Shown here: piece after piece, positions 3,097-16,252 of the stretch
How the letters are laid out: each line of letters starts with the position of its first letter
Numbering within the stretch: position 1 is the first letter of the stretch
Origin: Candidatus Krumholzibacteriota bacterium
GTDB taxonomy: Bacteria > Krumholzibacteriota > Krumholzibacteriia > LZORAL124-64-63
NCBI GenBank assembly: GCA_039714075.1
Contig: JBDLKA010000083.1
Location: forward strand, 1-16,252
DNA: 16,252 nt
Direction: 5' to 3'
The notes under the pieces: model-generated
What the model was told of the DNA's origin: nothing
The model's database searches: none
What the model saw: only the letters and a program-made list of their open reading frames with translations
Position numbers and translations under genes: made by a program

Positions 3097-3990
3097 TCAT
3101 TCGGCGTAGTCCCGGAAGATCCCGTCCAGGCCCACCAGGTTCTGCCTGATGTCCCAGATGACCTGGCCCCACTTGTCCTCCGGCAAACCGATGAACTCCC
3201 CCATTTCCCGGAATTTTTCCCAGGGCACATCCTCGCTCAGATTGATGTCCTGCTTGCGGCCAAGACCCCAATGGGCGCAGATTTTTTCGGCCAGGCCCAA
3301 AACGGCCGCGCCGAGGTTCCAATCGCCCGCCTGCGTATAATCGTGATGATGCCTGACACAGGCCGTGATCGATTCCGGCAGATTCCACTGGTTCAGGATG
3401 TACTCCCCCAGCTCGGCGTGGTTCAGGCCCACGGCCGCGGTTTCGTCCCGGCGATCGACATGCTTTCCGTCCATCGGCGGCAGGAATTCATCGATGATCA
3501 ACTGGCCGACATCGTGCAACAGCCCGGCCACATAGGCTTCCTCGCTGCGCAGGGTACACTCCGGGGAGGCATCCACCAGCACCCGGCTGGTCTGGGCGAC
3601 GCCCAGGGAATGTCTCCAGAATCCCCTGTCCGGGTCGTAGTCGTAATTCAGCAGGGAACGTCGCGTCAGCCCCTCGGTGCTGACCGCGAACACGATTTTC
3701 TTCAGATTTACCAGGCCGATCAGGACCACCGCTTCGGGAATGGAATTGATGGAGCGCGAACGACCGTACAGCCCGCTGTTGGCCAGCTTCAACACCCGGG
3801 CCACCAGGGCCTGGTCCTTGCTGATGACCGCTTCGAAATCCCTGGCGGTGAAATATTCACGCTGGGACAGTTCCAGGAACTCGAGGACCACCGAATTCAG
3901 GCTCGGCAGGGTCTCCATTTTTTCCAGAACCTCGAACCTCAGGTTTCGCCACGGTCTTTCCGCAACAACCGGTGTCGAAGGAGCGTTCAT
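3097..3990 (-). CDS. HDOD domain signal-transduction protein
   Basis: LPSL, ISKDQALVARVLKLANSGLYG, SIPEAVVLIG, FWRHSLGVA, AGLLHDVG, NHAELGEYILNQWNLPESI and RHHH motifs. Confidence 0.92.
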   Translation of the reverse strand: MNAPSTPVVAERPWRNLRFEVLEKMETLPSLNSVVLEFLELSQREYFTARDFEAVISKDQALVARVLKLANSGLYGRSRSINSIPEAVVLIGLVNLKKIVFAVSTEGLTRRSLLNYDYDPDRGFWRHSLGVAQTSRVLVDASPECTLRSEEAYVAGLLHDVGQLIIDEFLPPMDGKHVDRRDETAAVGLNHAELGEYILNQWNLPESITACVRHHHDYTQAGDWNLGAAVLGLAEKICAHWGLGRKQDINLSEDVPWEKFREMGEFIGLPEDKWGQVIWDIRQNLVGLDGIFRDYAE

Positions 3991-4550
3991 TTGAATTCTC
4001 CGTTCGAGTCCACATCAAGGACGATTCCCACGTCGTCTCCGTCACAGGGATTGATGGTGCCGGGCCTGGCCCACAGCCGGCCCGGAAAGGTGTCCGATTT
4101 CCGGTTGGGCCCGGTGGACAACACGGCGATGGCCGTGTCCGTCATCATCACCAGGTAGGGCCGGCCCCAGGGATCGAGGGGAATGTCCTTGAGCCAGGAG
4201 CCGCCGGTAGCGGGGTGGCCGAGGGGAGATCCCGCATCGGAAAGACCCGCCGCCATGGTGGTGTTCGTCTTGTATCCGCCGGCCCGCCCTTCCAGGAGAA
4301 CCGTCAGATCGATGACCCCGTCGGAATTCCGCGGCCACCGCCCGGTATCGGCATGGTAATCCAGGACCGACCTGGCCAATTCCGTTGCTTCGGCCTTCGC
4401 CCTGACCGGGCGTTCCTCGGGAATCAGGCCGCTGAGGAGATTCCACGCCAGCAGCCCCGTTCCCGCCAAAAGGACAATTCCAAGAAGGCCCTGGAATCCC
4501 ATAAATGATTTTTTGAACACAGGTTTCCCCGTTTTTTGTCTGTTCCCCAA
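3987..4550 (-). CDS. Type II secretion GspG-like (T2SSG domain) membrane-anchored protein
   Basis: N-terminal hydrophobic helix, then L..Y..DTGRWP, WLKDIPLDPWGRPY, VLSTGPN and DDVG, all GspG C-domain motifs. Start uncertain: GTG 4550 or ATG 4502. Confidence 0.7.
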   Translation of the reverse strand: MGNRQKTGKPVFKKSFMGFQGLLGIVLLAGTGLLAWNLLSGLIPEERPVRAKAEATELARSVLDYHADTGRWPRNSDGVIDLTVLLEGRAGGYKTNTTMAAGLSDAGSPLGHPATGGSWLKDIPLDPWGRPYLVMMTDTAIAVLSTGPNRKSDTFPGRLWARPGTINPCDGDDVGIVLDVDSNGEFK

Positions 4551-4728
4551 CAGGATTAAAGGTCAATTCCGGCTTAAAATCCGGATCCAAGGGGTATTTC
4601 ACCCACCCCGGAGGTATGCAACCTCCGTTCCAGTCCCTGCGGCCGCGGGCCCGGAAAGGGGCAAAAACCATGAATTTGGCAATATTATGGGGCTGAAGAC
4701 GTTTTCACGGGGGGCCGGATTTTCTGGT

Positions 4729-5520
4729 TCAAACCTCTTTTTTGGGCAGGGTGCCGTCCAGGGCGTCCCGCAGAATGCCTTTGATCTCTTCGCTGAAGTC
4801 CTTGCCGAGCATCCATTCCAGGTAGCTGCGCCCGCGCTGATCGGCGACCACCGCGTTCAGGGATTTGCCCTGGAACTTGCCGAAGGTGAATTCGGCTTCG
4901 CCCTGGTCGTTCCACAGGAACTTGCGCTTGCGGTCCACGTAACGGCCCTCGTCGGGATTGCAGAAGCGGTGCAGGGCGCCGACCTCGTCCGGCACCTCGT
5001 CGTACCGGGCGATCTGGGCGTCGAGGATTTCCAGGGTGGCTTCGGTATCGGCCAGGGCGTTGTGGGCGCCGGTCAGATCCTTGCCGCAATAAAGCCTGTA
5101 GGCCGCGGTCAGGTCGCGCCGCTCCATGGCGTGGAAGATCTTCATGGCGTCCAGGTGCCGGACGCCGGGAAAATCCATTTCGCTGCCCGCGCGCTTCAGT
5201 TCCGCCTGGAGCAGGGGCATATCGAAATTGACCGAATTGAACCCGGCCAGATCCGCTTCGGCGAGATAGTCCTCCACCTCGCGACGGATCTGACTGAAGG
5301 TCGGTTTGTCCCGGACGTCGGCGTCCTTGATCCCGTGCACGGCCGAAGCCTCCGGCGGAATGGGCTGCTCGGGATTGACCAGGGTCTCGAAGGTGGTGCG
5401 GCTGCCGTCGGGATCGACCCGGATCATGGCGATCTGGACGACCCGGTCCTTCTCCACGTTGATGCCGGTGGTCTCCAGGTCGAACACCACCAGCGGGCGG
5501 GTGAGCTTCAGATTCTGCAT
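4729..5520 (-). CDS. DnaQ-like DEDDh 3'-5' exonuclease with C-terminal DUF3820-like domain
   Basis: ExoI VVFDLETTG, ExoII GFNSVNFD and ExoIII AHNALADT. C-terminal FTFGKFQGKSL...YLEWM. Confidence 0.9.
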   Translation of the reverse strand: MQNLKLTRPLVVFDLETTGINVEKDRVVQIAMIRVDPDGSRTTFETLVNPEQPIPPEASAVHGIKDADVRDKPTFSQIRREVEDYLAEADLAGFNSVNFDMPLLQAELKRAGSEMDFPGVRHLDAMKIFHAMERRDLTAAYRLYCGKDLTGAHNALADTEATLEILDAQIARYDEVPDEVGALHRFCNPDEGRYVDRKRKFLWNDQGEAEFTFGKFQGKSLNAVVADQRGRSYLEWMLGKDFSEEIKGILRDALDGTLPKKEV

Positions 5521-5604: not shown

Positions 5605-6678
5605 TCAGACGTTTTCTAACACGGGAACAACGTGCACCCACTCGGGATGGTGCTTGCTGTTCCCCGCGTGAATCCCGGTCAGTGTAACACGAAGCTTCTC
5701 CGTAAGCTCCCCTTCTTTTCCATTTGCGATCTGATGGTCGGCGCCCTTGAAGTGGATCACACCGACGGGAGTGACCACGGCCGCGGTGCCGCAGGCAAAG
5801 ACTTCCTTCAGCTTGCCGGTGTGGGCGTCTTCGCATACCTCGGCGATGTTGGGCGGATCTTCGACCCAGTTGTATCCCATGTCCTTCAAAAGGATGCCCA
5901 CCGAATCGCGCGTCACCCCGTTGAGGATGGTGTCGCCGGCGGCCGCCGTGATCACCTTGTCTTCGTAAACGAAGGCGATGTTCATGGCGCCCATTTCCTC
6001 GACGTACTTCCTCTCCTTGGCGTCCAGCCAGATGATGTTGTCGTAGCCGGCGTCCTGGGCCTGCTGGATGGGCAGAAGCGACGCCGAGTAGTTGCCGCCG
6101 GTCTTGGCGAAACCGGTGCCGCCTTCGACCGAGCGCACGAACTGCTCCTCGACGCGCAGCCGCAGGGGATTGATGCCCCCCGCAAAGTAGGACCCCACCG
6201 GCCCGATGATGATGTAGAAGATGTAGTCGGTCGAAGCCTTCACGCCCAGACCCGTCTGGGTCGCGATCATGGTCGGCCGGATGTACAGGGCGTTGGGACT
6301 TTCGGGCACCCATTCACGATCCAGATCGATGAGCTGGTCCAGCGCCCGGATGAACAGGTCCGGATCCACCTGGGGCATGCACATGCGCTCGCAGGAAATG
6401 TTGAATCTGGTCACGTTCTTGTCGGGGCGGAACATATGCACCGAACCGTCGTCACCGTTCTGGTAGGCCTTCATGCCCTCGAAGATTTCCTGGCCGTAGT
6501 GCAGCACCTTGGCCGCCGGATCGAGGCTGAAGTTGCCGTAGGGAATGATGCGCGGGTCGCGCCACTGCCCGTCGGAATAATCCATGACGAACATGTGCGG
6601 CGTGAAGATCTGGCCGAATCCGTAATCCCCGTCGGGGGGCGACTGGGGATTGGGGTTCCTGGTGATTGGAATGTTCAT
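5605..6678 (-). CDS. ilvE: Branched-chain amino acid aminotransferase (class IV PLP enzyme)
   Basis: FGQIFTPHM, LHYGQEIFEGMKAY, LYIRP, AKTGGNY (PLP Lys), EEMGAMN, ILNGVTRDS and EVFACGTAAVVTPV. GAGGAGG RBS precedes ATG 6678. Confidence 0.96.
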   Translation of the reverse strand: MNIPITRNPNPQSPPDGDYGFGQIFTPHMFVMDYSDGQWRDPRIIPYGNFSLDPAAKVLHYGQEIFEGMKAYQNGDDGSVHMFRPDKNVTRFNISCERMCMPQVDPDLFIRALDQLIDLDREWVPESPNALYIRPTMIATQTGLGVKASTDYIFYIIIGPVGSYFAGGINPLRLRVEEQFVRSVEGGTGFAKTGGNYSASLLPIQQAQDAGYDNIIWLDAKERKYVEEMGAMNIAFVYEDKVITAAAGDTILNGVTRDSVGILLKDMGYNWVEDPPNIAEVCEDAHTGKLKEVFACGTAAVVTPVGVIHFKGADHQIANGKEGELTEKLRVTLTGIHAGNSKHHPEWVHVVPVLENV

Positions 6679-6832
6679 CCCGTCCTCCTCCTGGCATTTC
6701 GGGCGGAAAGTGAAGGCCGCGGCCCCCGCCACGCCTCAAACCCGAAAAAGGTGTGAAATCACCCTGTATAGAGGGTTTTCATGCTTCAAATTTCGTCATT
6801 TGCGGTGATGAAAGCAAGAATTGGCGCTGGGT

Positions 6833-7443: not shown

Positions 7444-8166
7444 ATGTCGAAACCAAGGCTCTGCTTTATCCTTCCCGGTGTCCTTTTCATTCTGATGTTT
7501 CACGGTTTCCCGGACGGCGGCGGCCGGCTGCTGGCCCAGGAGGACTCCAATCTCGAAGTGGGCGGATCCCTTCCCTTGACCGAGGGGGAATCCGGTTGGT
7601 TCCCGGAACTGAATGTCCTGGACGCGCGGTTGGCTCTGTCCGCCCAGTACAACCACTTCACCGGCGAAGACATGCGTGATACCTATGGCGGGCTGCCGAT
7701 GATCGCCGCGGCCTTTTCTTTTCGGGCCTCCCGGTATTCGCGGGTCTTCGTTTCGGTCGGCTACGGCAAACAAACCGGAGACCCCTATTACAACACTCCC
7801 GGTATCAACGCCGAGGACCACATCAAGGTGCGTTACCTCCCCGTCCAGTGGGGCATGAAGGCCGATCTTGCCCGGAGCACCCGGATTCATGTCTACATCG
7901 GCGCCGCGGTGGAACTCGCCTGGATGGAAGAAACCATTCCCCTGCTCGGCAACGAGGGAACCGTGGCGGAAACGTCCTCGACCGGTATCAACGGCGGCTA
8001 CAACCTGACCTTCGGACCCGAATTCGTATTGGGACAGGGTGGCCGGGCCGTGGGCCTGGAAATCGGCTGGGGCGGGTCCAAGGGCAGCGTCACGACTCGA
8101 GGCCATTCTCACCAAATCGACATGACCGGATTCCGGGGGCGGTTGTATCTCGCCCTCGCGCTTTGA
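7444..8166 (+). CDS. Outer-membrane beta-barrel protein (small, OmpA/porin-like 8-strand type)
   Basis: Hydrophobic N-terminal signal. Alternating strands such as RVFVSVGY, IHVYIGAAVEL, GYNLTFGPEF and VGLEIGW, with final strand GFRGRLYLALAL. GGGGG RBS-like stretch. Confidence 0.65.
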   Translation: MSKPRLCFILPGVLFILMFHGFPDGGGRLLAQEDSNLEVGGSLPLTEGESGWFPELNVLDARLALSAQYNHFTGEDMRDTYGGLPMIAAAFSFRASRYSRVFVSVGYGKQTGDPYYNTPGINAEDHIKVRYLPVQWGMKADLARSTRIHVYIGAAVELAWMEETIPLLGNEGTVAETSSTGINGGYNLTFGPEFVLGQGGRAVGLEIGWGGSKGSVTTRGHSHQIDMTGFRGRLYLALAL

Positions 8167-8178
8167 GGAGGATGCACC

Positions 8179-9222
8179 ATGCGAAACTCGATTTATTCCC
8201 TGCTGACAGTCCTGGCCGTCCTGGCCGCCCTGGTGCTGATCCCCCCCCCGATGGTTTACGCCGACGGCGGGTTCTTATTCCCCCAGGATGCGTTCATGTA
8301 CGAACCGGTGCAGCGGGCGCTCATCGACTACGACAGTGAGAACCACACGGAGCACCTCAGCATCCAACCCGGGTTCAGGGGTGACGCCAGGGCTTTTGCC
8401 TGGATTGTCCCGGTGCCCAATCTGCCTGAATTGACCTTGGCCGACAAACAGCTCTTTTGGGATCTCGACGCCCTGACCCGGCCGGTCCACCGCTCCCGGG
8501 ACGGTGACTGGGACTGTTGGGGAAACCGGGGAATCTACAGCCCCGATTACGCGGATGGTGGATTCGAAATCCACTCCTCCCAGCTGGTGGGTTACTACCA
8601 GACCCTGGTGCTGTCGGCCACCGAGGCGCCGGAACTGCTGGAATTCCTGACGACGCTGGGATTCCTGCACGAGGACAACCTGGAATCCGCCACCACGATC
8701 ATCAACGACTATGTGGAGCGGTCGTGGTACTTCGTCGCCATGCAGGTGGACAGCACGGCCCTGGCGGAAATCAACCCGGGCGGCTACTACGGCTACTATT
8801 CCGGAAATTTGGATCCCATCAGGCTGGCCTTTGCTTCGGACGAAATCATCTATCCCATGAAAATCTCGGCCATGAGCGCCGCCGATGTATCGACGGTCCA
8901 CCTTTACGTGAAGACGGACCACCGCATGACCTTTTCCGGCGCGAGCACCCACTACGCCAACCGCTTTTCTGCCGGAGAGCTCAATGAGCTTTCCCGGTTC
9001 ACGAGCTTGCGTTCGATTTTTCAACCGGGGGATTTCCTGACCAAACTGCAGCGCGGTTATCTTCCCGAGCAGATGGTTGAAGACATCATCCTGGCGCAGG
9101 CCGCCACCGATGACGAATTCCACCTGATCATTTACGGCGGCTTTCCCTGGACCGGAATCCTGTTGATTTCAATGCCGGTCGCCGTGGCTCTCAAGAGGCG
9201 GTTTTGGATCAGAAGGGAGTAG
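8179..9222 (+). CDS. DUF2330 domain protein with signal peptide and C-terminal TM anchor
   Basis: YADGG after the signal peptide, QRALIDYD...EHLSIQPGFRG, FAWIVPVPNLP, LFWDLDALTRP, YVERSWYFVAM, LDPIRLAFASDEIIYPMKIS. C-terminal TM followed by KRR. GAGGAGG RBS in the 12-bp gap after the barrel gene. Confidence 0.8.
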   Translation: MRNSIYSLLTVLAVLAALVLIPPPMVYADGGFLFPQDAFMYEPVQRALIDYDSENHTEHLSIQPGFRGDARAFAWIVPVPNLPELTLADKQLFWDLDALTRPVHRSRDGDWDCWGNRGIYSPDYADGGFEIHSSQLVGYYQTLVLSATEAPELLEFLTTLGFLHEDNLESATTIINDYVERSWYFVAMQVDSTALAEINPGGYYGYYSGNLDPIRLAFASDEIIYPMKISAMSAADVSTVHLYVKTDHRMTFSGASTHYANRFSAGELNELSRFTSLRSIFQPGDFLTKLQRGYLPEQMVEDIILAQAATDDEFHLIIYGGFPWTGILLISMPVAVALKRRFWIRRE

Positions 9223-9320
9223 GCCGGTTTCCGGCGGGAGGGTATGGCCGAACCCGCCAAGTCTTCATATGCTGAATTTTGGGGGTCGTCGGTAGGTGTT
9301 ATCTGGCGAAGGGATTGATA

Positions 9321-10616
9321 ATGGACCGACGCCCCCCGTCCCCGAAATTATTCAGCGCCGTCCCGGCTCCGCCGGTGATGCTGCTGCCCCTGCTGCTGAT
9401 AGTCTTCCTGCTGGCCGGTTGCAGCGACGACGACGCCGTCGTCGAGGTGATTCCTCCGGCCGGCCCCGCCCCCGTTCTCGCTGCCGAGCCCGAATTCTCC
9501 CCGGGGCTTTCGAACACCGTTTCCTGGTCCCTGCCCGAGGGTGAGAAAGCCGGTGACCTGGAGTTTCTCGTCCAGCGGTCCGGCGATCCCCTGTTCGACG
9601 CGGAGGTGGTGGAAAGCGGTTGGATTGCCGAGTCGTCCTTCGAGTTCACCGGCCTGGAACACGCCTCGACCCATCATTTCCGGGTCCGCGGCCGCAATCC
9701 GCAGGGAGCCAAAACCGAATGGTCGTCCAGCCAGGCATCCACCCAGGACGCGGTTCCTCCGGTCGCCGCACTGACGGAGATGAAAGCGGAACAGACCAGC
9801 CTTTTGTTCACCTTCGAGCTGTCCGCGACCGACCAGGATAGCGGGGTCGAGGAAATCGAGCTCTGGTTCGGACTGGAAGGCGCCGAAGCCGAGCTTTACG
9901 GGGTATTCCCTCCCGGCCAGGTTTCCTTTCAGGCGACCGGGGGGGGAATCCACGAGTTCATTCCCCTGGCCGTTGACGTGGCCGGCAACCGGCAGGACTT
10001 GGCCGCCGCCACCGTCCAGGAGACGATTGTGCCCGAGCCCATCATCATCACCGACAGGCGCGGGGAAGACTTCGACATCACCGCGGCGGTGCTGGAATAC
10101 CGCATGGGCGAAACCTTCTGGGAGTTCGGGCTGGGCCGCTACACGATCCGGCCCATCATCGACCCCCTGATGGTCGGTCCAGGCCATCACGCATACCCGG
10201 ACGAAAACGCCATCACCCCGATCCTGGGCGTCAAGTACGATGACGATATTCGCGCCTACAAGATCGGCGACATGATGAACAGGGAGGTGGTCGACGACGT
10301 CGTCAACGGCATTCCCATTGCCGTCTGCTACTGACCTCTCTGCGATTCGGTTGTGGTCTACAACCGCGTACTCGACGGAGAAACCCTGACGATCGCCGCC
10401 AGCGGCTGGACCTGGCATCAGATCTTCGTGCTGCAGGATTATGAAACGGGAAGCCTGTGGTTCCCCGGCCTGTCCTTTCCCGGAGGCACGGATTTCCTGC
10501 TCTGCGTCGCGGGTCCCCACCAGGGTCGAAAACTGTGGGCCAGGGACTCGGCCCGCGTCACCTGGAAAGGCTGGCATTCGTTCTACCCTAATTCCCTCAT
10601 CATGCACACGAAGTAG
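9321..10616 (+). CDS. Lipoprotein with FN3 + Ig-like stalk and C-terminal DUF3179 domain; predicted selenoprotein (TGA 10332-10334 = Sec)
   Basis: ORFs 9279..10334 and 10353..10616 share a frame and read ...REVVDDVVNGIPIAVCY-(TGA)-PLCDSVVVYNRVLDGETLTIAASGW...FVLQDYETGSLW, matching the DUF3179 pattern YCPLC..A..YDR....L.F.vSG....LVM.D.ET.SLW. A SECIS hairpin follows the TGA. Lipobox LAGC (Cys 9420-9422). Alternative start ATG 9378. Confidence 0.85.
10341..10370 (+). promoter_or_regulatory. Bacterial SECIS element
   Basis: UGCG(AUU)CGGUUGU-GGUCU-ACAACCG-CGUA hairpin. The G-starting apical loop begins 21 nt after the UGA. It closely resembles the E. coli fdhF SECIS core GGUUGCAGGUCUGCACC. Confidence 0.8.
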
Positions 10617-10622
10617 CCCGCC

Positions 10623-10655
10623 GCCGCCGGGCCCTCGCGCCCGGCGGCTCTTTTT
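10623..10655 (+). terminator. Intrinsic terminator after the DUF3179 selenoprotein gene
   Basis: GCCGCCGGGC-CCTCGC-GCCCGGCGGC 10-bp stem followed by TCTTTTT, just after TAG at 10614-10616. Confidence 0.82.
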
Positions 10656-10675
10656 ACCCTAACCCGTTTTATACG

Positions 10676-10704
10676 TTGCGGTTGGGGTTTTTCTGTGATA
10701 TCCT
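10676..10704 (+). promoter_or_regulatory. Putative sigma70-type promoter of the kinase gene
   Basis: TTGCGG-17 bp-TATCCT with an extended TG, located just downstream of the terminator. Confidence 0.5.
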
Positions 10705-10787
10705 GATCAACGAGGGAGCCAAGTTTCGCCCGAAACCGATGGTCACGTATATCCACGGAACTGCTGATGATTGGGACCGGGGGCCTC

Positions 10788-13379
10788 ATGCAGGAACGGA
10801 TGGTATCCCACTACAAGATTCTCGAATGCCTGGGTGGCGGGGCCATGGGCCAGGTATTCAAGGCCGAAGACACCCTCCTGCACCGACCCGTCGCGCTGAA
10901 ATTCCTGCCCGCCGAGCTGACCGAAGACGAGGAGGCCTCCCGGCGCTTCATGCGCGAGGCCCGGGCCACATCCTCACTGGACCATCCCAACATCTGCGCC
11001 ATCCACGAAATTGCCCAGGCCGACGACGGCTCCTGGTACATCGCCATGGCCTGGTACGAGGGCCGGAACCTGAAAAAGGTGTTGAGCCGGGGCGCCCTCC
11101 CTCCCGAGCAGGCCCTGAGTTACGCCCGGCAGACGGCTCTCGGTCTGGGCGATGCCCATGACCATGGCGTGATCCACCGCGACATCAAACCGGCCAACCT
11201 CATCGTCACCGACCGGGACGACGTGAAGATCCTCGATTTCGGGCTGGCCCGGCTTCTGGGCAAGGCCCGCCTGACCAGGACCGGCACGGTGATGGGTACG
11301 GCGGCCTACATGTCCCCCGAACAGGCGCGCGGCGAGGACGTGGGCACCAGTTCGGACATCTGGTCCCTGGGGGTCGTGCTCTACGAAATGCTTTCGGGGC
11401 AGGTGCCGTTCGACGGCGACAGCGATGTGGCCATGATCTATTCGGTGCTGCACTCGGACCCGGCTCCCCTACCCCAGCCGGTGTGCCGGAACAGCAAGAT
11501 CTGCACGGACATCATCCATAACTGCCTGGCCCGCGATCCGGGGGACCGCTACCCTTCGGCCCATGTCCTGGCCGACGACATCGAGTCGGCCATGGAGGGT
11601 TCCAAGACGTCGTTCGGCAGCAAGCCTTCGGGCTCCTCCATTTTCGCCCCTCCCGGCCGGCCCCGCTGGCACCGGTTACTGCCCGCCCTTGTCGCCCTGG
11701 TGCTGTTGTTGGCCCTGGCCTTCCCGCAATCGCGCAGCTTCCTGCGCTCGATCGTTCCTTTCGCCTCCGGGCCGCGACCGGTCGGCGTGGCCGTGATTCC
11801 CTTCCACCTTACCGGGGATGTGGACGACGCCACGGCCTTCGGCCTGGGATTGAGCAACACGATCAACGACCGGCTGGCCGGACTGGAACAGCATTCCGGC
11901 CGGTTCTGGGTCGTGCCCGCGGGGGAAGTCAAGCGACGACAGGTCGTGGATGACGACAGGGCGCAGACGGTTCTGGGAGTCCAGCAGATCATCACCGGCA
12001 CGGGGAATCTGAGCGGCAAAACCATCAACCTGACCTTGACCGTTCACGACACCCGGGACAATTCCTACCAATCCAAGGTATTCCGGGATTTCTCCGGCAA
12101 CCTGAAAATCTGGCAAAGCGACCTGCTGTCCTGGCTGGCGGGAATCATCGATCCTGAACTGGAAGCGGTTCCGGACAGGTTTACCGGCGCCCAGAACACA
12201 ACCATTCCTTCTGCGTTTCTTGCTTATCAGCGCGGATTCGGCCATCTGGCGGAAGCTTCCGCCGGCCCCGACGACGAGCACACCGTAGCCGCCCTGCCGT
12301 ATCTGGAGCGGGCCGTGGCCAACGACTCTTCCTTTTCCTGCGCCTGGACCCAGCTGGGCCGGGCGGTTTTCTTCAGGTATGGACCCGCCGATTCGGTCAG
12401 GGTTTCCGAGGCCGAGGCCTACCTGGCCACCGCCGTCCGGCTGGACAGCACCGCCGTGTGGCCCCACCACTACCTGGGCACTCTCCGGGCCCGGCTCGGC
12501 GATACCGACGCCGCCCTGGGTGAATACCGCCGGGCCCTGGCCCTGGATCCCCGGCACGCGCCGACCCTGAACAGCCTGGCCAATATGTATTACTGGAACG
12601 GGGAAGAAAAACGCGCCGAAGCCGCCTTTGATCGGGCCATTGACGCCCGCCCATATTATCCGCGGGCCCACAGGAATGCCGGAGCGTTTCACTACCAACG
12701 GGAGGACATGGAAAAAGCACGGGAGAATTTCCAAGCCATGGTCGAATTGGTCCCGGACGACGAACTAGGCTATCGAATGCTGGGGATCATCTACTACGGA
12801 GAGGATGATTACGAGAACGCGGAAACCATGTTCAAGCGTTCCCTGGCCCTCAAGGAAACCAATGGAACCTACGCGAACCTGGGCACACTTTATTATTATG
12901 ACCAGCGGTACACCGACAGCATCGTCATGTCCCAAAAAGCCCTGGAACTGGGGCCCGACGACTTTGATACCTGGCGCACCCTGGCCGCCGCCTACTATTT
13001 CGCCCCCGGTTTCGAGGATTCGGTGCGTCCGGCCTATGAAAAAGCCATGGAACTGCTCCGGGTCGAAATGGCCCTGTATCCTGAGAACCCCGGTTTTAAA
13101 GCGGATCAAGCGTCTTTCTACCATAAGCTGGGAGAACCCGAGACCGCCCTGGCGATCCTGTCCGATCTGGAAACCAATCATTCCGACCTGGATCCCTGGA
13201 TCATGTTCAGCATGGCTTCCACCTATGAAGAGCTCGGCGACCGCGACCGGGCCCTGGACTGGCTGGAGAATGCCCTGGAAAGGGAACTTTCATTCAAGAG
13301 GGTGGAACGCTATCCGGTTCTGAAAAACCTGCAGTCGCATCCGCGGTATATCGCTTTGCGAAAAAAGTATGAGCAGTAG
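10788..13379 (+). CDS. Hanks-type Ser/Thr protein kinase with TM helix, TolB_N-like domain and TPR repeats
   Basis: LGGGAMGQV, VALKFL, HRDIKPAN, DFGLA, GTAAYMSPEQ and SDIWSLG. TM LLPALVALVLLLALAF, then VAVIPF, then multiple TPRs. Start ATG 10788 (10767 also possible). Confidence 0.95.
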   Translation: MQERMVSHYKILECLGGGAMGQVFKAEDTLLHRPVALKFLPAELTEDEEASRRFMREARATSSLDHPNICAIHEIAQADDGSWYIAMAWYEGRNLKKVLSRGALPPEQALSYARQTALGLGDAHDHGVIHRDIKPANLIVTDRDDVKILDFGLARLLGKARLTRTGTVMGTAAYMSPEQARGEDVGTSSDIWSLGVVLYEMLSGQVPFDGDSDVAMIYSVLHSDPAPLPQPVCRNSKICTDIIHNCLARDPGDRYPSAHVLADDIESAMEGSKTSFGSKPSGSSIFAPPGRPRWHRLLPALVALVLLLALAFPQSRSFLRSIVPFASGPRPVGVAVIPFHLTGDVDDATAFGLGLSNTINDRLAGLEQHSGRFWVVPAGEVKRRQVVDDDRAQTVLGVQQIITGTGNLSGKTINLTLTVHDTRDNSYQSKVFRDFSGNLKIWQSDLLSWLAGIIDPELEAVPDRFTGAQNTTIPSAFLAYQRGFGHLAEASAGPDDEHTVAALPYLERAVANDSSFSCAWTQLGRAVFFRYGPADSVRVSEAEAYLATAVRLDSTAVWPHHYLGTLRARLGDTDAALGEYRRALALDPRHAPTLNSLANMYYWNGEEKRAEAAFDRAIDARPYYPRAHRNAGAFHYQREDMEKARENFQAMVELVPDDELGYRMLGIIYYGEDDYENAETMFKRSLALKETNGTYANLGTLYYYDQRYTDSIVMSQKALELGPDDFDTWRTLAAAYYFAPGFEDSVRPAYEKAMELLRVEMALYPENPGFKADQASFYHKLGEPETALAILSDLETNHSDLDPWIMFSMASTYEELGDRDRALDWLENALERELSFKRVERYPVLKNLQSHPRYIALRKKYEQ

Positions 13380-13955: not shown

Positions 13956-15743
13956 TTATTCCACCAGGGTGATCGAACGCGTCCGGACGACTGTCTCGCC
14001 ACCCATCCGCACCATCATCCGCACCTGATAGACACCCGAGGCTACCTGGCGGCCGGCACGGTCGGTGCCGTCCCACATGGCGTTGAAGGGGCCGGTCTCG
14101 AAATGACCGGAAACCAACCCGCGCACCAGGTGCCCGCGCGCGTCGTAGATGTTCAGCTCCACGGCGCCGGGCCGGTCCAGTTCGAACCTGATTTCGGTGG
14201 ACGGATTGAAAGGATTCGGAATGTTGGGCATGAGCCGGGCGTCGCCGGCCGTCGGCGTCTGCGGTACCGGCGACAGCGGGTTGAACACCGTGAAGTCGGC
14301 CACCCTGGGAGCATGATCGCTGGCGTCGGTGGTATCGTATTGCTGGAGTCCGTGGGCGGCCAGATTCGCCGGGGTCATGGTCCGGGTTTCCAGAACGTAG
14401 TGGTTGTGCAGATCGAGCACGCTGTCGGTGTACATGACATAGTCCAGCACTCCGGGGTAGTAGGTGCTGAAATCGTTGCGCCAGGTGTAGCCGGCCCGGA
14501 AGTCGGGCTGCCGGGACAGAGGATTGATAAAGTTGGAGCCGTCCCAGTCCGGCGCCGCGTCGGCCCCGTAGGTTCCCTCGTCCTGGATGTCACCGGTGAT
14601 GATGGTGTCCAACTGCTGCCGCCAGCCGACGAGATTCAGATCGCCGCACAGGACAAAAGGCGTGCCTTCGGGCACCGTGACCACGCCGCCTGCGGTTTTG
14701 GCGTCGCGCAGGAAGCCGATCACCGAGTCGGCTTCGTTCTGCCGGTCCTGGTCGGCGGTGCAGCAGCGCCAGTGGTTGGCGATCAGCAGCAGGTCCTTGT
14801 CCGAGACCGCGCCCAGGTCGAGCAGGGCCGCGGTCACCCGGTAGCCCGGATTCACTTCCCAGCTCTGTAGGATGGGATAGCGGCTGACGATGACGTTGCC
14901 CGCGTCACGCATGACCGCGTACCAGTCTTCGCCGGCCCCGCTGGGAAGATGCTGCTCGATCATGTCGCGCACTTCGGTCGCGTTGTGGTACCACACTTCG
15001 TTCACCACGACCACGTCGGGGTCCATGGCGTCGAGCATCCGGTTCTGGGCCGACTCCGCCGAGCCGCCATCGAACAGGCCGTCGCTTTGCACGTTCCAGG
15101 TGGCGATGCGGATGTGGGCGGGATCATCGCGCGTCAGCGCCAGACCGGGTGTGGCGATGGAACCGGCCGTGAAGGTGTAGGCGATGCTGCCCGAGTTCGG
15201 CGCCACGTCGCCCGAGTCGGTATCATAAAAAATGAACCTGATGTCGCCGCCGTTGAAAAGGGCCTGCCCTCCGGCCGGAATCGCGTCCCGGCGAAAAGCC
15301 ACCTCGAATTCCGTGTTGCTGACGGTGGGTCCAATCATCAACCCGACATCGGCGTGCTCCACCGTGTAGGTGCTCCCGGGCTTGAAGGTGCCCTCGCGCC
15401 AGCCGAATTCCCACATCAGCTCGGCGCCGATCCCATTGAAGGACGTCCCCGTACCGGCGTTCATGTCGGTGTCGATATAGAGCCGCATGTTCTGCTGCTC
15501 GTCCGGCTGGACATTGCCTTCGGTTTCGAACCGGATGTAGAGATAGTCCTGGTCGTTGGCCACCCAGATCCGGCCGAAATCCACGGTTCCCGAATCGTCG
15601 TTCGAGTCGTCGTGGACAGCGGTCAGGCCCGCCCAGTCGTCAAAATTGCCATCCAGGTGGATGGGTTCCAGATTGGCCAGGGCAAACCCGGGCACCAGCA
15701 GGCAGAACAAGGCACAGGCGATAATTCGGGAGGAGATGGACAC
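13956..15743 (-). CDS. Secreted endonuclease/exonuclease/phosphatase (EEP) protein with N-terminal DOMON/CBM9-like domain and C-terminal FlgD-Ig/secretion-signal-like domain
   Basis: Signal peptide; LDGNFDDW...WVANDQDYLYIRF...LYIDTD; EEP motifs ATWNV, DVVVVNE, GDLN, LDY and SDH; C-terminal PNPFNPSTEIRF...IYDARG...WDGTDRAGRQVASGVY. GTG start. Confidence 0.85.
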   Translation of the reverse strand: MSISSRIIACALFCLLVPGFALANLEPIHLDGNFDDWAGLTAVHDDSNDDSGTVDFGRIWVANDQDYLYIRFETEGNVQPDEQQNMRLYIDTDMNAGTGTSFNGIGAELMWEFGWREGTFKPGSTYTVEHADVGLMIGPTVSNTEFEVAFRRDAIPAGGQALFNGGDIRFIFYDTDSGDVAPNSGSIAYTFTAGSIATPGLALTRDDPAHIRIATWNVQSDGLFDGGSAESAQNRMLDAMDPDVVVVNEVWYHNATEVRDMIEQHLPSGAGEDWYAVMRDAGNVIVSRYPILQSWEVNPGYRVTAALLDLGAVSDKDLLLIANHWRCCTADQDRQNEADSVIGFLRDAKTAGGVVTVPEGTPFVLCGDLNLVGWRQQLDTIITGDIQDEGTYGADAAPDWDGSNFINPLSRQPDFRAGYTWRNDFSTYYPGVLDYVMYTDSVLDLHNHYVLETRTMTPANLAAHGLQQYDTTDASDHAPRVADFTVFNPLSPVPQTPTAGDARLMPNIPNPFNPSTEIRFELDRPGAVELNIYDARGHLVRGLVSGHFETGPFNAMWDGTDRAGRQVASGVYQVRMMVRMGGETVVRTRSITLVE

Positions 15744-15788: not shown

Positions 15789-15817
15789 ATTATATCATTT
15801 TACGTTCGAGAATTCAA
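15789..15817 (-). promoter_or_regulatory. Sigma70-type promoter of the EEP gene
   Basis: Minus strand TTGAAT-17 bp-TATAAT with extended TG. Overlaps the 3' end and stop codon of the HNH ORF. Confidence 0.7.
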
Positions 15818-16252
15818 AACCCGGCCGCTTGGACCCGTGCCCGCCTCCCCGTTCATGCCACAGCCGGTGGCAGGACCCGCAGAGGGTCACCAGGTTTTCC
15901 GCTTGGTTGGTTCCCCCATGCTGCCGCGGGTTGATGTGGTGCACTTCAAGGAACCTTGTGCGTCCGCAACCCGGGGCCCGGCAACGGTGTTTGTCCCTGG
16001 CCAGCACCTCCCGGCGCACTCTTGGGGGAATTGTCGTCGTGTTGCGGCCTTTGTGTTTGCACACCGCTGCGTCGCAGCGGATTCGTTCTGATTCGGCCCT
16101 GTTCAACTCGCGCTCCCCAGCGTCGGTTTGAACCGTCATCCGACCGGTTTCTTCATTTTCGTGAACGTGGATCTGCACCGGCGGACGACCGGAAAAGTGT
16201 CCCCGGGGACACTTTTGGCCCTGTAACTCCTTTGTTTCCAACAGAGCCGCCA
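15795..16252 (-). CDS. HNH endonuclease, DUF222/13E12-type C-terminal part (5' truncated by window edge)
   Basis: RIRCDA...TIPPRVRREVLARDKHRCRAPGC...EVHHI...GGTNQAENLVTLCGSCHRLWH. The frame is open to the window edge. Confidence 0.88.
   Translation of the reverse strand, partial: AALLETKELQGQKCPRGHFSGRPPVQIHVHENEETGRMTVQTDAGERELNRAESERIRCDAAVCKHKGRNTTTIPPRVRREVLARDKHRCRAPGCGRTRFLEVHHINPRQHGGTNQAENLVTLCGSCHRLWHERGGGHGSKRPGFEFSNVK

Follow-up and report, generated by a model that had tools for sequence, protein, structure and literature searches.

DUF3179, the family to which the protein described here is most closely related, appears with the motif UxxC/T in the tables of prokaryotic selenoprotein families of two reviews (PMC9312934, 2022; PMC13188914, 2026), as far as the excerpted tables go. 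Both reviews credit Zhang and Gladyshev 2007 (PMC1976440) for the selenocysteine (Sec)-containing form; the excerpted passages of that paper do not carry the name DUF3179, and the mapping to its own family names is unconfirmed. DUF3179 also appears as a table entry in an Idiomarina paper. The closest described counterpart of the RNA signal is the Sec insertion sequence (SECIS) of Escherichia coli fdhF, a hairpin directly 3' of the UGA and inside the coding sequence, with G-G-U-C in its apical loop. Here we describe a gene on the plus strand of contig JBDLKA010000083.1 from a Candidatus Krumholzibacteriota bacterium (assembly GCA_039714075.1); the window, to which all plain positions refer, is the whole stretch of 16,252 nucleotides that we analysed. 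We propose that 9321-10616 is a single gene encoding an exported, lipid-anchored selenoprotein of 431 residues, whose Sec would serve as a redox-active or soft-metal centre, and we assign this reading a probability of about 0.88.

The product resembles the known Sec-DUF3179 family in several respects: it scores above the cut-off for PF11376, its Sec is the first residue of a U-P-L-C motif, a SECIS hairpin follows directly, and it carries export signals. The sequence U338-P-L-C341 agrees with the UxxC/T form given in the excerpted review tables, in which Sec is followed by cysteine (Cys) or Thr at +3, and the protein shares both the motif and the SECIS geometry with a canonical family member encoded in the same genome. 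It differs from the known family in holding a half-size domain, an additional N-terminal extension, and a fusion to a lipobox, an FN3 domain and an immunoglobulin-like (Ig-like) domain. Because DUF3179 is already a listed selenoprotein family, the novelty lies only in this architecture. On its predicted sequence, the protein extends a known selenoprotein family by a new architecture, and the function that we discuss below is a proposal. A full-text literature search turned up no earlier account of a stalked DUF3179 protein, of the half-size module or of a Rieske-like fold for the family, and a search for Krumholzibacter together with selenocysteine found nothing related. The gene does not overturn current knowledge of selenoproteins.

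The frame extends over 431 codons, from ATG 9321 to the TAG at 10614-10616, and the TGA at 10332-10334 is its sole in-frame TGA. When this codon is read as U, the product is 431 residues long, with U338 within IAVCY-U-PLCDSVVVYNR. A plain listing of open reading frames (ORFs) cuts the frame in two, 9279/9321-10334 and 10353-10616. The first-pass annotation, made from the sequence alone, had joined these two ORFs across the TGA into a protein of 431 residues with U338 counted from ATG 9321; frame and translation agree with that reconstruction, and the start is kept in the orthologues, which share an M-x-R-R-P beginning that backs ATG 9321. The same annotation had stated that the downstream piece lacks a ribosome-binding site and that the terminator lies after 10616 rather than after the TGA, and we found both statements to be correct. 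No Shine-Dalgarno-like purine run lies upstream of GTG 10353, where the downstream ORF starts; ATG 9321 is preceded by AAGGGA. The only terminator-like site in 9100-10800 is the hairpin at 10623-10648 with its T run, which lies 3' of the TAG, and no such site lies directly after the TGA. With its own terminator, the gene looks monocistronic. A minus-strand ORF of 419 codons (9348-10607) lies opposite the gene and is most probably its shadow, because all homology is on the plus strand; the G+C content of the window is 60.9%. We conclude that 9321-10616 is one real gene that gene callers have split in error.

Homologues in protein databases carry the same split. Among 5.8 billion proteins searched, 38 matched, and 15 of these were aligned. 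The 337-residue fragment of the window gene itself is one of the 38; query coverage is 95-96% in two others and 63-78% in 35. All 13 aligned short homologues terminate at the residue directly before U338, as expected if standard annotation divides such genes. Public protein sets store this gene and its orthologues as pieces, about 330-340 residues long, that break off at the UGA; family searches therefore miss the catalytic half and the Sec, and the annotation of the window gene, along with some 35 database fragments, calls for correction. The two full-length homologues (P0003 and P0004) read CPLC, with Cys at the position of U338.

We compared 30 orthologous DNA loci, 13 from species-representative genomes, nearly all labelled as Krumholzibacteriia or Krumholzibacteriota metagenome-assembled genomes, and 17 from metagenomes. 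The alternation of TGA and TGC that had been looked for among orthologues is present: the codon is TGA in 27 loci and TGC in three. The three TGC loci are identical in the compared stretch and probably represent one lineage. Alignment of U338 with Cys, likewise anticipated, is seen in P0003, P0004 and one of the DNA loci (L015), and U is aligned with it in the DUF3179 paralogue from the same genome. Two loci have disrupted frames near this site: L035 has a frameshift just upstream of the TGA (about 3381-3452), and the frame of L016 diverges after the AAS motif (after about 4030). The TGA is present in both, and the disruptions are assembly errors or decay.

Reading continues in frame past codon 338 in the orthologous loci, through PLCD...AASGW...ETGSLW. 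Over the 93 codons downstream of the TGA, eight orthologues of equal length show 154, 132 and 272 differences at codon positions 1, 2 and 3, respectively, and the stop is at the same position in all eight. A phylum-wide profile search of 208 genomes gave 267 matches, of which 150 are listed and counted here; among the matches listed, 12 cover the whole profile, and 11 of these contain exactly one TGA, with none in the twelfth (G129). These data bear on the possibility that the TGA marks a nonsense pseudogene, an assembly or sequencing error, or a genome-wide reassignment of TGA. Any of these would account for a single in-frame stop and for the two pieces given by gene callers, but the TGA recurs in 27 independent loci from many assemblies and in 11 of the 12 full-length phylum matches listed, the downstream frame is conserved, and the hairpin described below covaries. 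Reassignment is further contradicted by the use of TGA as a stop: it terminates four of the nine genes in the window, where an internal TGA occurs in the selenoprotein gene only, and the DUF3179 paralogue also ends with a TGA stop. We regard this group of explanations as effectively refuted. The orthologues thus do not show the pattern that the first-pass annotation had named as the mark of a pseudogene, namely close relatives that all carry TGC or TGT without a conserved hairpin.

The same evidence bears on the possibility that the UGA mainly terminates, such that a 337-residue, stalk-only lipoprotein would be the dominant product and the Sec read-through protein a minor, selenium-dependent isoform. 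SelB-dependent recoding is generally incomplete, and a product cut at the UGA would still retain about 100 residues of the C-terminal domain (C-domain) in addition to the lipobox and the two stalk domains. We nevertheless consider this explanation quite improbable: coding constraint acts on the 93 codons past the UGA, which run up to a conserved stop, the orthologues with Cys would make the full protein constitutively, and a cut at residue 337 would break the modelled beta-sandwich. From these sequence comparisons, we conclude that the UGA at 10332-10334 is almost certainly a Sec codon.

Downstream of this codon, the first-pass annotation had pointed to an fdhF-like hairpin, CGGUUGU-GGUCU-ACAACCG. 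We located it 13 nt after the UGA and found that it covaries. In 24 distinct TGA-bearing orthologous sequences, 97.6% of the cells are paired, and six of the seven base pairs show changes on both sides; one pair, for example, is C-G in 13 sequences and U-A in 10. None of 500 shuffles matched the pairing of the stem, a count that is not to be read as a probability because the 24 sequences are related to one another and come from a coding region, and controls in which the register was slid paired at 20-58%. The most divergent locus (L042) has a hairpin in the same register with a wholly different sequence. Loop positions 2 (G, column 31) and 5 (U, column 34) are invariant across the aligned orthologues. 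In the TGC form, SVVVYNR is replaced by SHGVFER, and no hairpin forms in this register.

Some results count against the hairpin as a Sec signal. Folding energy alone is weak, with a z-score of -0.56 on 75 nt; on 66 nt the z-score is -2.24, and six of 200 shuffles fold as well. The lower helix drawn by RNAfold is 74% paired across the orthologues, and because of this low figure we do not claim a lower SECIS helix. Finally, an Rfam scan of 10200-10500 at E-values up to 10 returned four unrelated rows at chance level and no SECIS family. Compared with fdhF of E. coli K-12, in which the hairpin begins 11 nt after the UGA and the loop is GGUC, the window gene has a spacing of 13 nt and the loop GGUCU; the upper stem of fdhF has a bulged U, whereas RNAfold gives none for the window hairpin, and the lower helix of the latter is not conserved. 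Given the shared geometry and the GGUC loop, the label fdhF-like is therefore fair.

The source genome (4.06 Mb in 260 contigs, 92% complete) encodes the machinery for Sec insertion, each component scoring above its curated cut-off: a tRNA-Sec (68.5 bits, with 47 as the cut-off; ARAGORN calls it SeC(tca)), SelA (368 bits), SelB (640 residues, with a wing-3 domain at 54.6 bits) and SelD (364 bits; G000:C31:20863-21777, locus L011). Thus the four genes that the first-pass annotation had proposed looking for, and whose absence it had named as evidence against Sec, are all present. The selD gene contains one in-frame TGA, and the selenophosphate synthetase is therefore probably a selenoprotein itself. 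The genome also encodes a DsbD-type membrane reductant carrier. In addition, it contains a second DUF3179 gene (G000:C126; L044 1363-2277, with its TGA at L044 1690), which encodes a canonical protein of 305 residues with a signal peptide and the motif W-U-PLCH. Its SECIS, CGGGCGU-GGUUC-ACGUCCG after a 13-nt spacer, has the same geometry as that of the window gene. The features of the window gene are listed in the table.

Features of the selenoprotein gene at 9321-10616 and its flanks
Feature	Position	Strand	Basis
Whole selenoprotein gene	9321..10616	+	431 codons + TAG; frame and stop position common to 30 orthologous loci
Shine-Dalgarno-like AAGGGA	9309..9314	+	6 nt upstream of ATG 9321; direct sequence reading
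Lipoprotein signal peptide, residues 1-34; lipobox L-A-G-C 9411-9422	9321..9422	+	Charged n-region, then hydrophobic run; by pattern only
FN3 domain, about residues 52-143	9474..9749	+	AlphaFold2 (AF2) model all-beta, predicted local distance difference test score (pLDDT) >90; absent from 4 orthologues
Second Ig-like/FN3-like beta-sandwich, about residues 146-236	9756..10028	+	AF2 strands; Foldseek tandem FN3
Subfamily-specific N-terminal extension (VPEPIIITD...FGLGR...)	10029..10214	+	Many invariant columns; outside the Pfam match; also in stalk-less relatives
DUF3179 match, residues 299-430	10215..10610	+	PF11376, E 2.5e-23, 83.4 bits against cut-off 27
UGA read as Sec (U338)	10332..10334	+	TGA in 27/30 orthologous loci, TGC in 3/30
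C341, the Cys of U-P-L-C	10341..10343	+	Invariant in 20 stalked orthologues; 0/14 in stalk-less Sec relatives
SECIS upper hairpin CGGUUGU-GGUCU-ACAACCG	10348..10366	+	7-bp stem 10348-10354/10360-10366, loop GGUCU 10355-10359
C395, distal Cys in LLCVAGP	10503..10505	+	Invariant in 20/20 stalked orthologues; present in paralogue
Intrinsic-terminator-like hairpin (10 G-C pairs) 10623-10648, then T run	10623..10658	+	

The first-pass annotation had described a lipobox followed by an FN3 domain and a second Ig-like domain, and our results support each of these elements. The lipobox consensus is [LVI]-[ASTG]-[GA]-C; the window protein reads L-A-G-C34, which fits as judged by pattern, and G33 and C34 are invariant in all 20 full-length orthologues. 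The predicted mature N-terminus is C-S-D-D-D-A. The AF2 model of the whole protein is all-beta, with a pLDDT of 86.5. The window protein scores 17.3 bits against the Pfam fn3 model (PF00041), below the cut-off of 25, while two orthologues score 31.2 (P0036) and 27.2. When the full-length profile was compared with the sequences in the Protein Data Bank (PDB), titin FN3 domains were matched, and the DUF3179 part had no match. Foldseek gave tandem FN3 pairs as the best matches for the stalk (E 1.4e-8, about 200 columns). For the second sandwich, NCBIfam returned a weak match of the OmpL47 type (24.2 bits against a cut-off of 40) and no equivalog. The domain order is thus lipobox Cys, FN3, second Ig-like domain, DUF3179 domain; the four orthologues without the FN3 domain therefore have a shorter stalk.

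The FN3 and Ig pair (profile positions about 33-225) is also a repeat unit in ORFs of 800-2,774 residues in many genomes of the phylum, where the number of tandem copies reaches at least eight; examples among the matches listed are G005:C55, G163:C14, G158:C44 and G161:C898. It occurs once more in the source genome (G000:C166:916-1476). Because the pair recurs in these giant ORFs, the stalk looks as if it had been borrowed from the repeats of giant proteins of the surface type.

The catalytic domain comprises residues 237-431, roughly 195 residues. PF11376 is matched by all 22 C-domain orthologues. In the window protein, the match runs from profile position 26 to 149, out of 292, at which point the protein also ends; in the paralogue, which has 305 residues, the aligned part is 41-192, where U faces U and a Cys faces C395. 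These partial spans indicate that the domain is the first half of DUF3179, with a conserved extension in front. The earlier assignment to DUF3179 therefore holds as to family, in view of the score, and does not hold for the full length of the profile.

When the C-domain was modelled alone, the result was again all-beta (pLDDT 91; predicted template-modelling score 0.85). We found that, in a structural search against representatives with VIA-align, each of the top 38 rows is a Rieske-type [2Fe-2S] domain (Z 6.5-3.5), a range to be read with caution, as Z below 8 may reflect a common arrangement and Z of about 6 is graded as middling. The best match, 3gce_A, has a Z of 6.5 and a root-mean-square deviation (rmsd) of 2.9 A over 94 of 104 residues. 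Together with 3dqy_A, 2qpz_A and the NirD-like 3c0d_A, it forms a group with Z of 6.5-6.2, rmsd of 2.8-3.6 A and 91-97 residues aligned, from chains of about 105 residues. The Rieske-like core corresponds to model residues 74-182, or protein residues 307-415 (about 10239-10565), and the place of U338 within this range would put it close to the first of the cluster-binding loops of the Rieske sandwich.

Membership of the Rieske family was considered as a candidate and rejected. The Rieske Pfam family (PF00355) matched none of the 22 C-domain members at E-values up to 10, an hhalign comparison with a set of 12 Rieske domains, taken from related genomes, yielded a probability of 1.1%, and the CxH and CxxH ligand motifs of Rieske proteins are absent from the C-domain sequences. 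Against the PDB, Foldseek gave no match to the C-domain at E of 0.001 or below. Given the failed sequence tests, the core is Rieske-like in fold only. As a prediction, this fold provides a lead on a large orphan family.

Catalytic-domain-only matches occur in other families of the phylum as ORFs of 226-400 residues, mostly with one TGA among the matches listed. We examined 16 such stalk-less relatives, hand-picked rather than random, of which 14 had been flagged as containing a TGA and two as lacking one. All 14 relatives with a TGA (L046-L058 and L061) have it at the U position. The residues that follow are P-L-V, P-L-Q, P-L-A, P-L-R or P-P-A; whereas the UxxC/T form of the excerpted review tables has Cys or Thr at U+3, these relatives have V, Q, A or R. 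The distal Cys, equivalent to C395, is retained in 14 of the 16. Since the U+3 Cys is absent from the stalk-less relatives, UxxC characterises the stalked clade and canonical DUF3179. On these alignments, Sec is the residue that is kept within the phylum and the Cys of 'xxC' is dispensable, which argues against a simple mechanism of the CxxC type.

Other fusions occur as well: in L061, the domain (4259-5518, minus strand) lies behind a Sortilin/BNR-like region, and in L048 (2040-3074, plus strand) behind a Kre9/KNH-like Ig domain. The half-size DUF3179 thus emerges as a portable module, found behind FN3-Ig stalks, a Kre9/KNH-like Ig domain or a Sortilin/BNR-like propeller, or alone. When the Cys-containing homologue P0003 was used for a feature search, only short DUF3179 clusters of 179-209 residues from other phyla were returned (best score 0.90), which serve as a lead only.

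Taking the gene structure, the Sec coding signals, the export and lipidation signals, the domain order and the fold class as its basis, the mechanism that we propose is as follows. SelB and Sec-tRNA(Sec) would recognise the hairpin at 10348-10366 and decode the UGA at 10332-10334 as Sec, U338. The product would be exported and lipid-anchored at C34, and from the membrane outward it would consist of the FN3 domain, the second Ig-like domain and the all-beta domain of roughly 195 residues, with the stalk keeping the active site away from the membrane. U338, in U-P-L-C341, would lie at the end of a beta-strand of the Rieske-like sandwich, with C395 as a third conserved thiol/selenol residue. The selenol of U338 could then act as a redox-active or soft-metal-binding centre outside the cytoplasm. 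In the stalked clade, C341 may resolve the Sec by forming a selenenylsulfide with it, and the reducing pathway of the envelope would recycle the site.

The domain may thus act as a UxxC thiol/selenol oxidoreductase, the role that the first-pass annotation had suggested. Several observations speak against this part of the proposal. The model is all-beta, and no thioredoxin-fold chain is among the Foldseek or VIA-align rows listed. Cys at U+3 is found in none of the 14 stalk-less Sec relatives, and the two relatives without a stop (L059 and L060), which retain the distal Cys, nevertheless have Arg rather than Cys at the U position. No redox partner gene adjoins the selenoprotein gene in the window, and no thiol-redox gene recurs among 62 ORFs around the 16 stalk-less relatives.

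An alternative role is that the Sec site is a soft-metal or metalloid site (Hg, As, Cu or Fe-S-type) at the tip of a Rieske-like loop, within a binding or sensing module of the envelope or surface. The top 38 structural matches are, as described above, all Rieske-type metal-cluster domains, and U338, C341 and C395 offer three conserved thiol/selenol residues; the stalk-less relatives keep U and the distal Cys without the U+3 Cys, a set of ligands that fits such a site better than it fits a CxxC-type dithiol. The absent U+3 Cys and the Rieske-like fold thus weigh towards a metal or metalloid ligand. However, the missing CxH and CxxH motifs, the lack of a Rieske Pfam match in the 22 members, the low hhalign probability and the middling Z of about 6 tell against it, and no metal-handling gene is adjacent in the window or around the 16 stalk-less relatives. 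We therefore hold the metal or metalloid site to be a tentative, though possible, role and modestly favour a redox function, which we judge to be slightly better than an even bet.

The predicted mature N-terminus also raises the question of where the anchored protein faces. SDDDD is given as the Bacteroides fragilis consensus of the lipoprotein export signal (LES) of surface lipoproteins, in the excerpted passages of PMC5080379. The window protein has S-D-D-D-A after its lipid-modified Cys, which resembles this consensus; unlike B. fragilis, the window organism belongs to another phylum, and the Bacteroidota consensus may not be that of the host. By eye, we counted at least two acidic residues at +2 to +6 in 11 of 20 orthologues. 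With this count, and with the LES rule unproven outside the Bacteroidota, surface exposure is only a possibility. We regard as unlikely the fuller proposal of a surface-displayed selenoprotein, in which a Rieske-derived selenol site on an FN3-Ig stalk, flipped outward by the LES-like C-SDDDA, would act on extracellular disulfides, metals or metalloids. If it were true, DUF3179 would be a Sec/Cys derivative of the Rieske sandwich on a stalk borrowed from giant adhesin-like proteins of the phylum, and particle-bound disulfides, metals or metalloids outside the cell would be among the substrates that it reduces or binds.

The genes around the selenoprotein gene show limited synteny. The plus strand immediately upstream carries an unknown ORF (7444-8166), followed by a DUF2330 gene (8179-9222). 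They are beside the selenoprotein gene in only two of the 30 loci (L028 and L029), so that, compared with most of these loci, they appear to be an insertion. Further upstream, both on the minus strand, are a class IV aminotransferase gene (5605-6732) that is syntenic in 13 loci and an RNase T-like exonuclease gene. Downstream lies a gene for a Ser/Thr kinase with C-terminal TPR repeats (10767-13379, plus strand), syntenic in 11 loci; elsewhere an EEP-family gene is found. Synteny is limited to the aminotransferase and the kinase (or the EEP-family gene). Around the stalk-less relatives, a MutY-like gene adjoins five of the 16, which is plain synteny.

Long shadow ORFs lie opposite real genes in the window at 5632-6756 (plus strand) and at 9348-10607 (minus strand). 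For the aminotransferase, the minus-strand frame is 77-90% identical in 13 loci and the opposing plus-strand frame 54-72%, and by this comparison the minus-strand gene at 5605-6732 is evidently the real one. Elsewhere on the minus strand, the window holds genes for an HDOD-domain protein (3097-3990) and for an EEP-family nuclease/phosphatase with a C-terminal FlgD-type Ig domain (13956-15743), as well as a fragment of an HNH endonuclease gene at the window edge (15795-16250).

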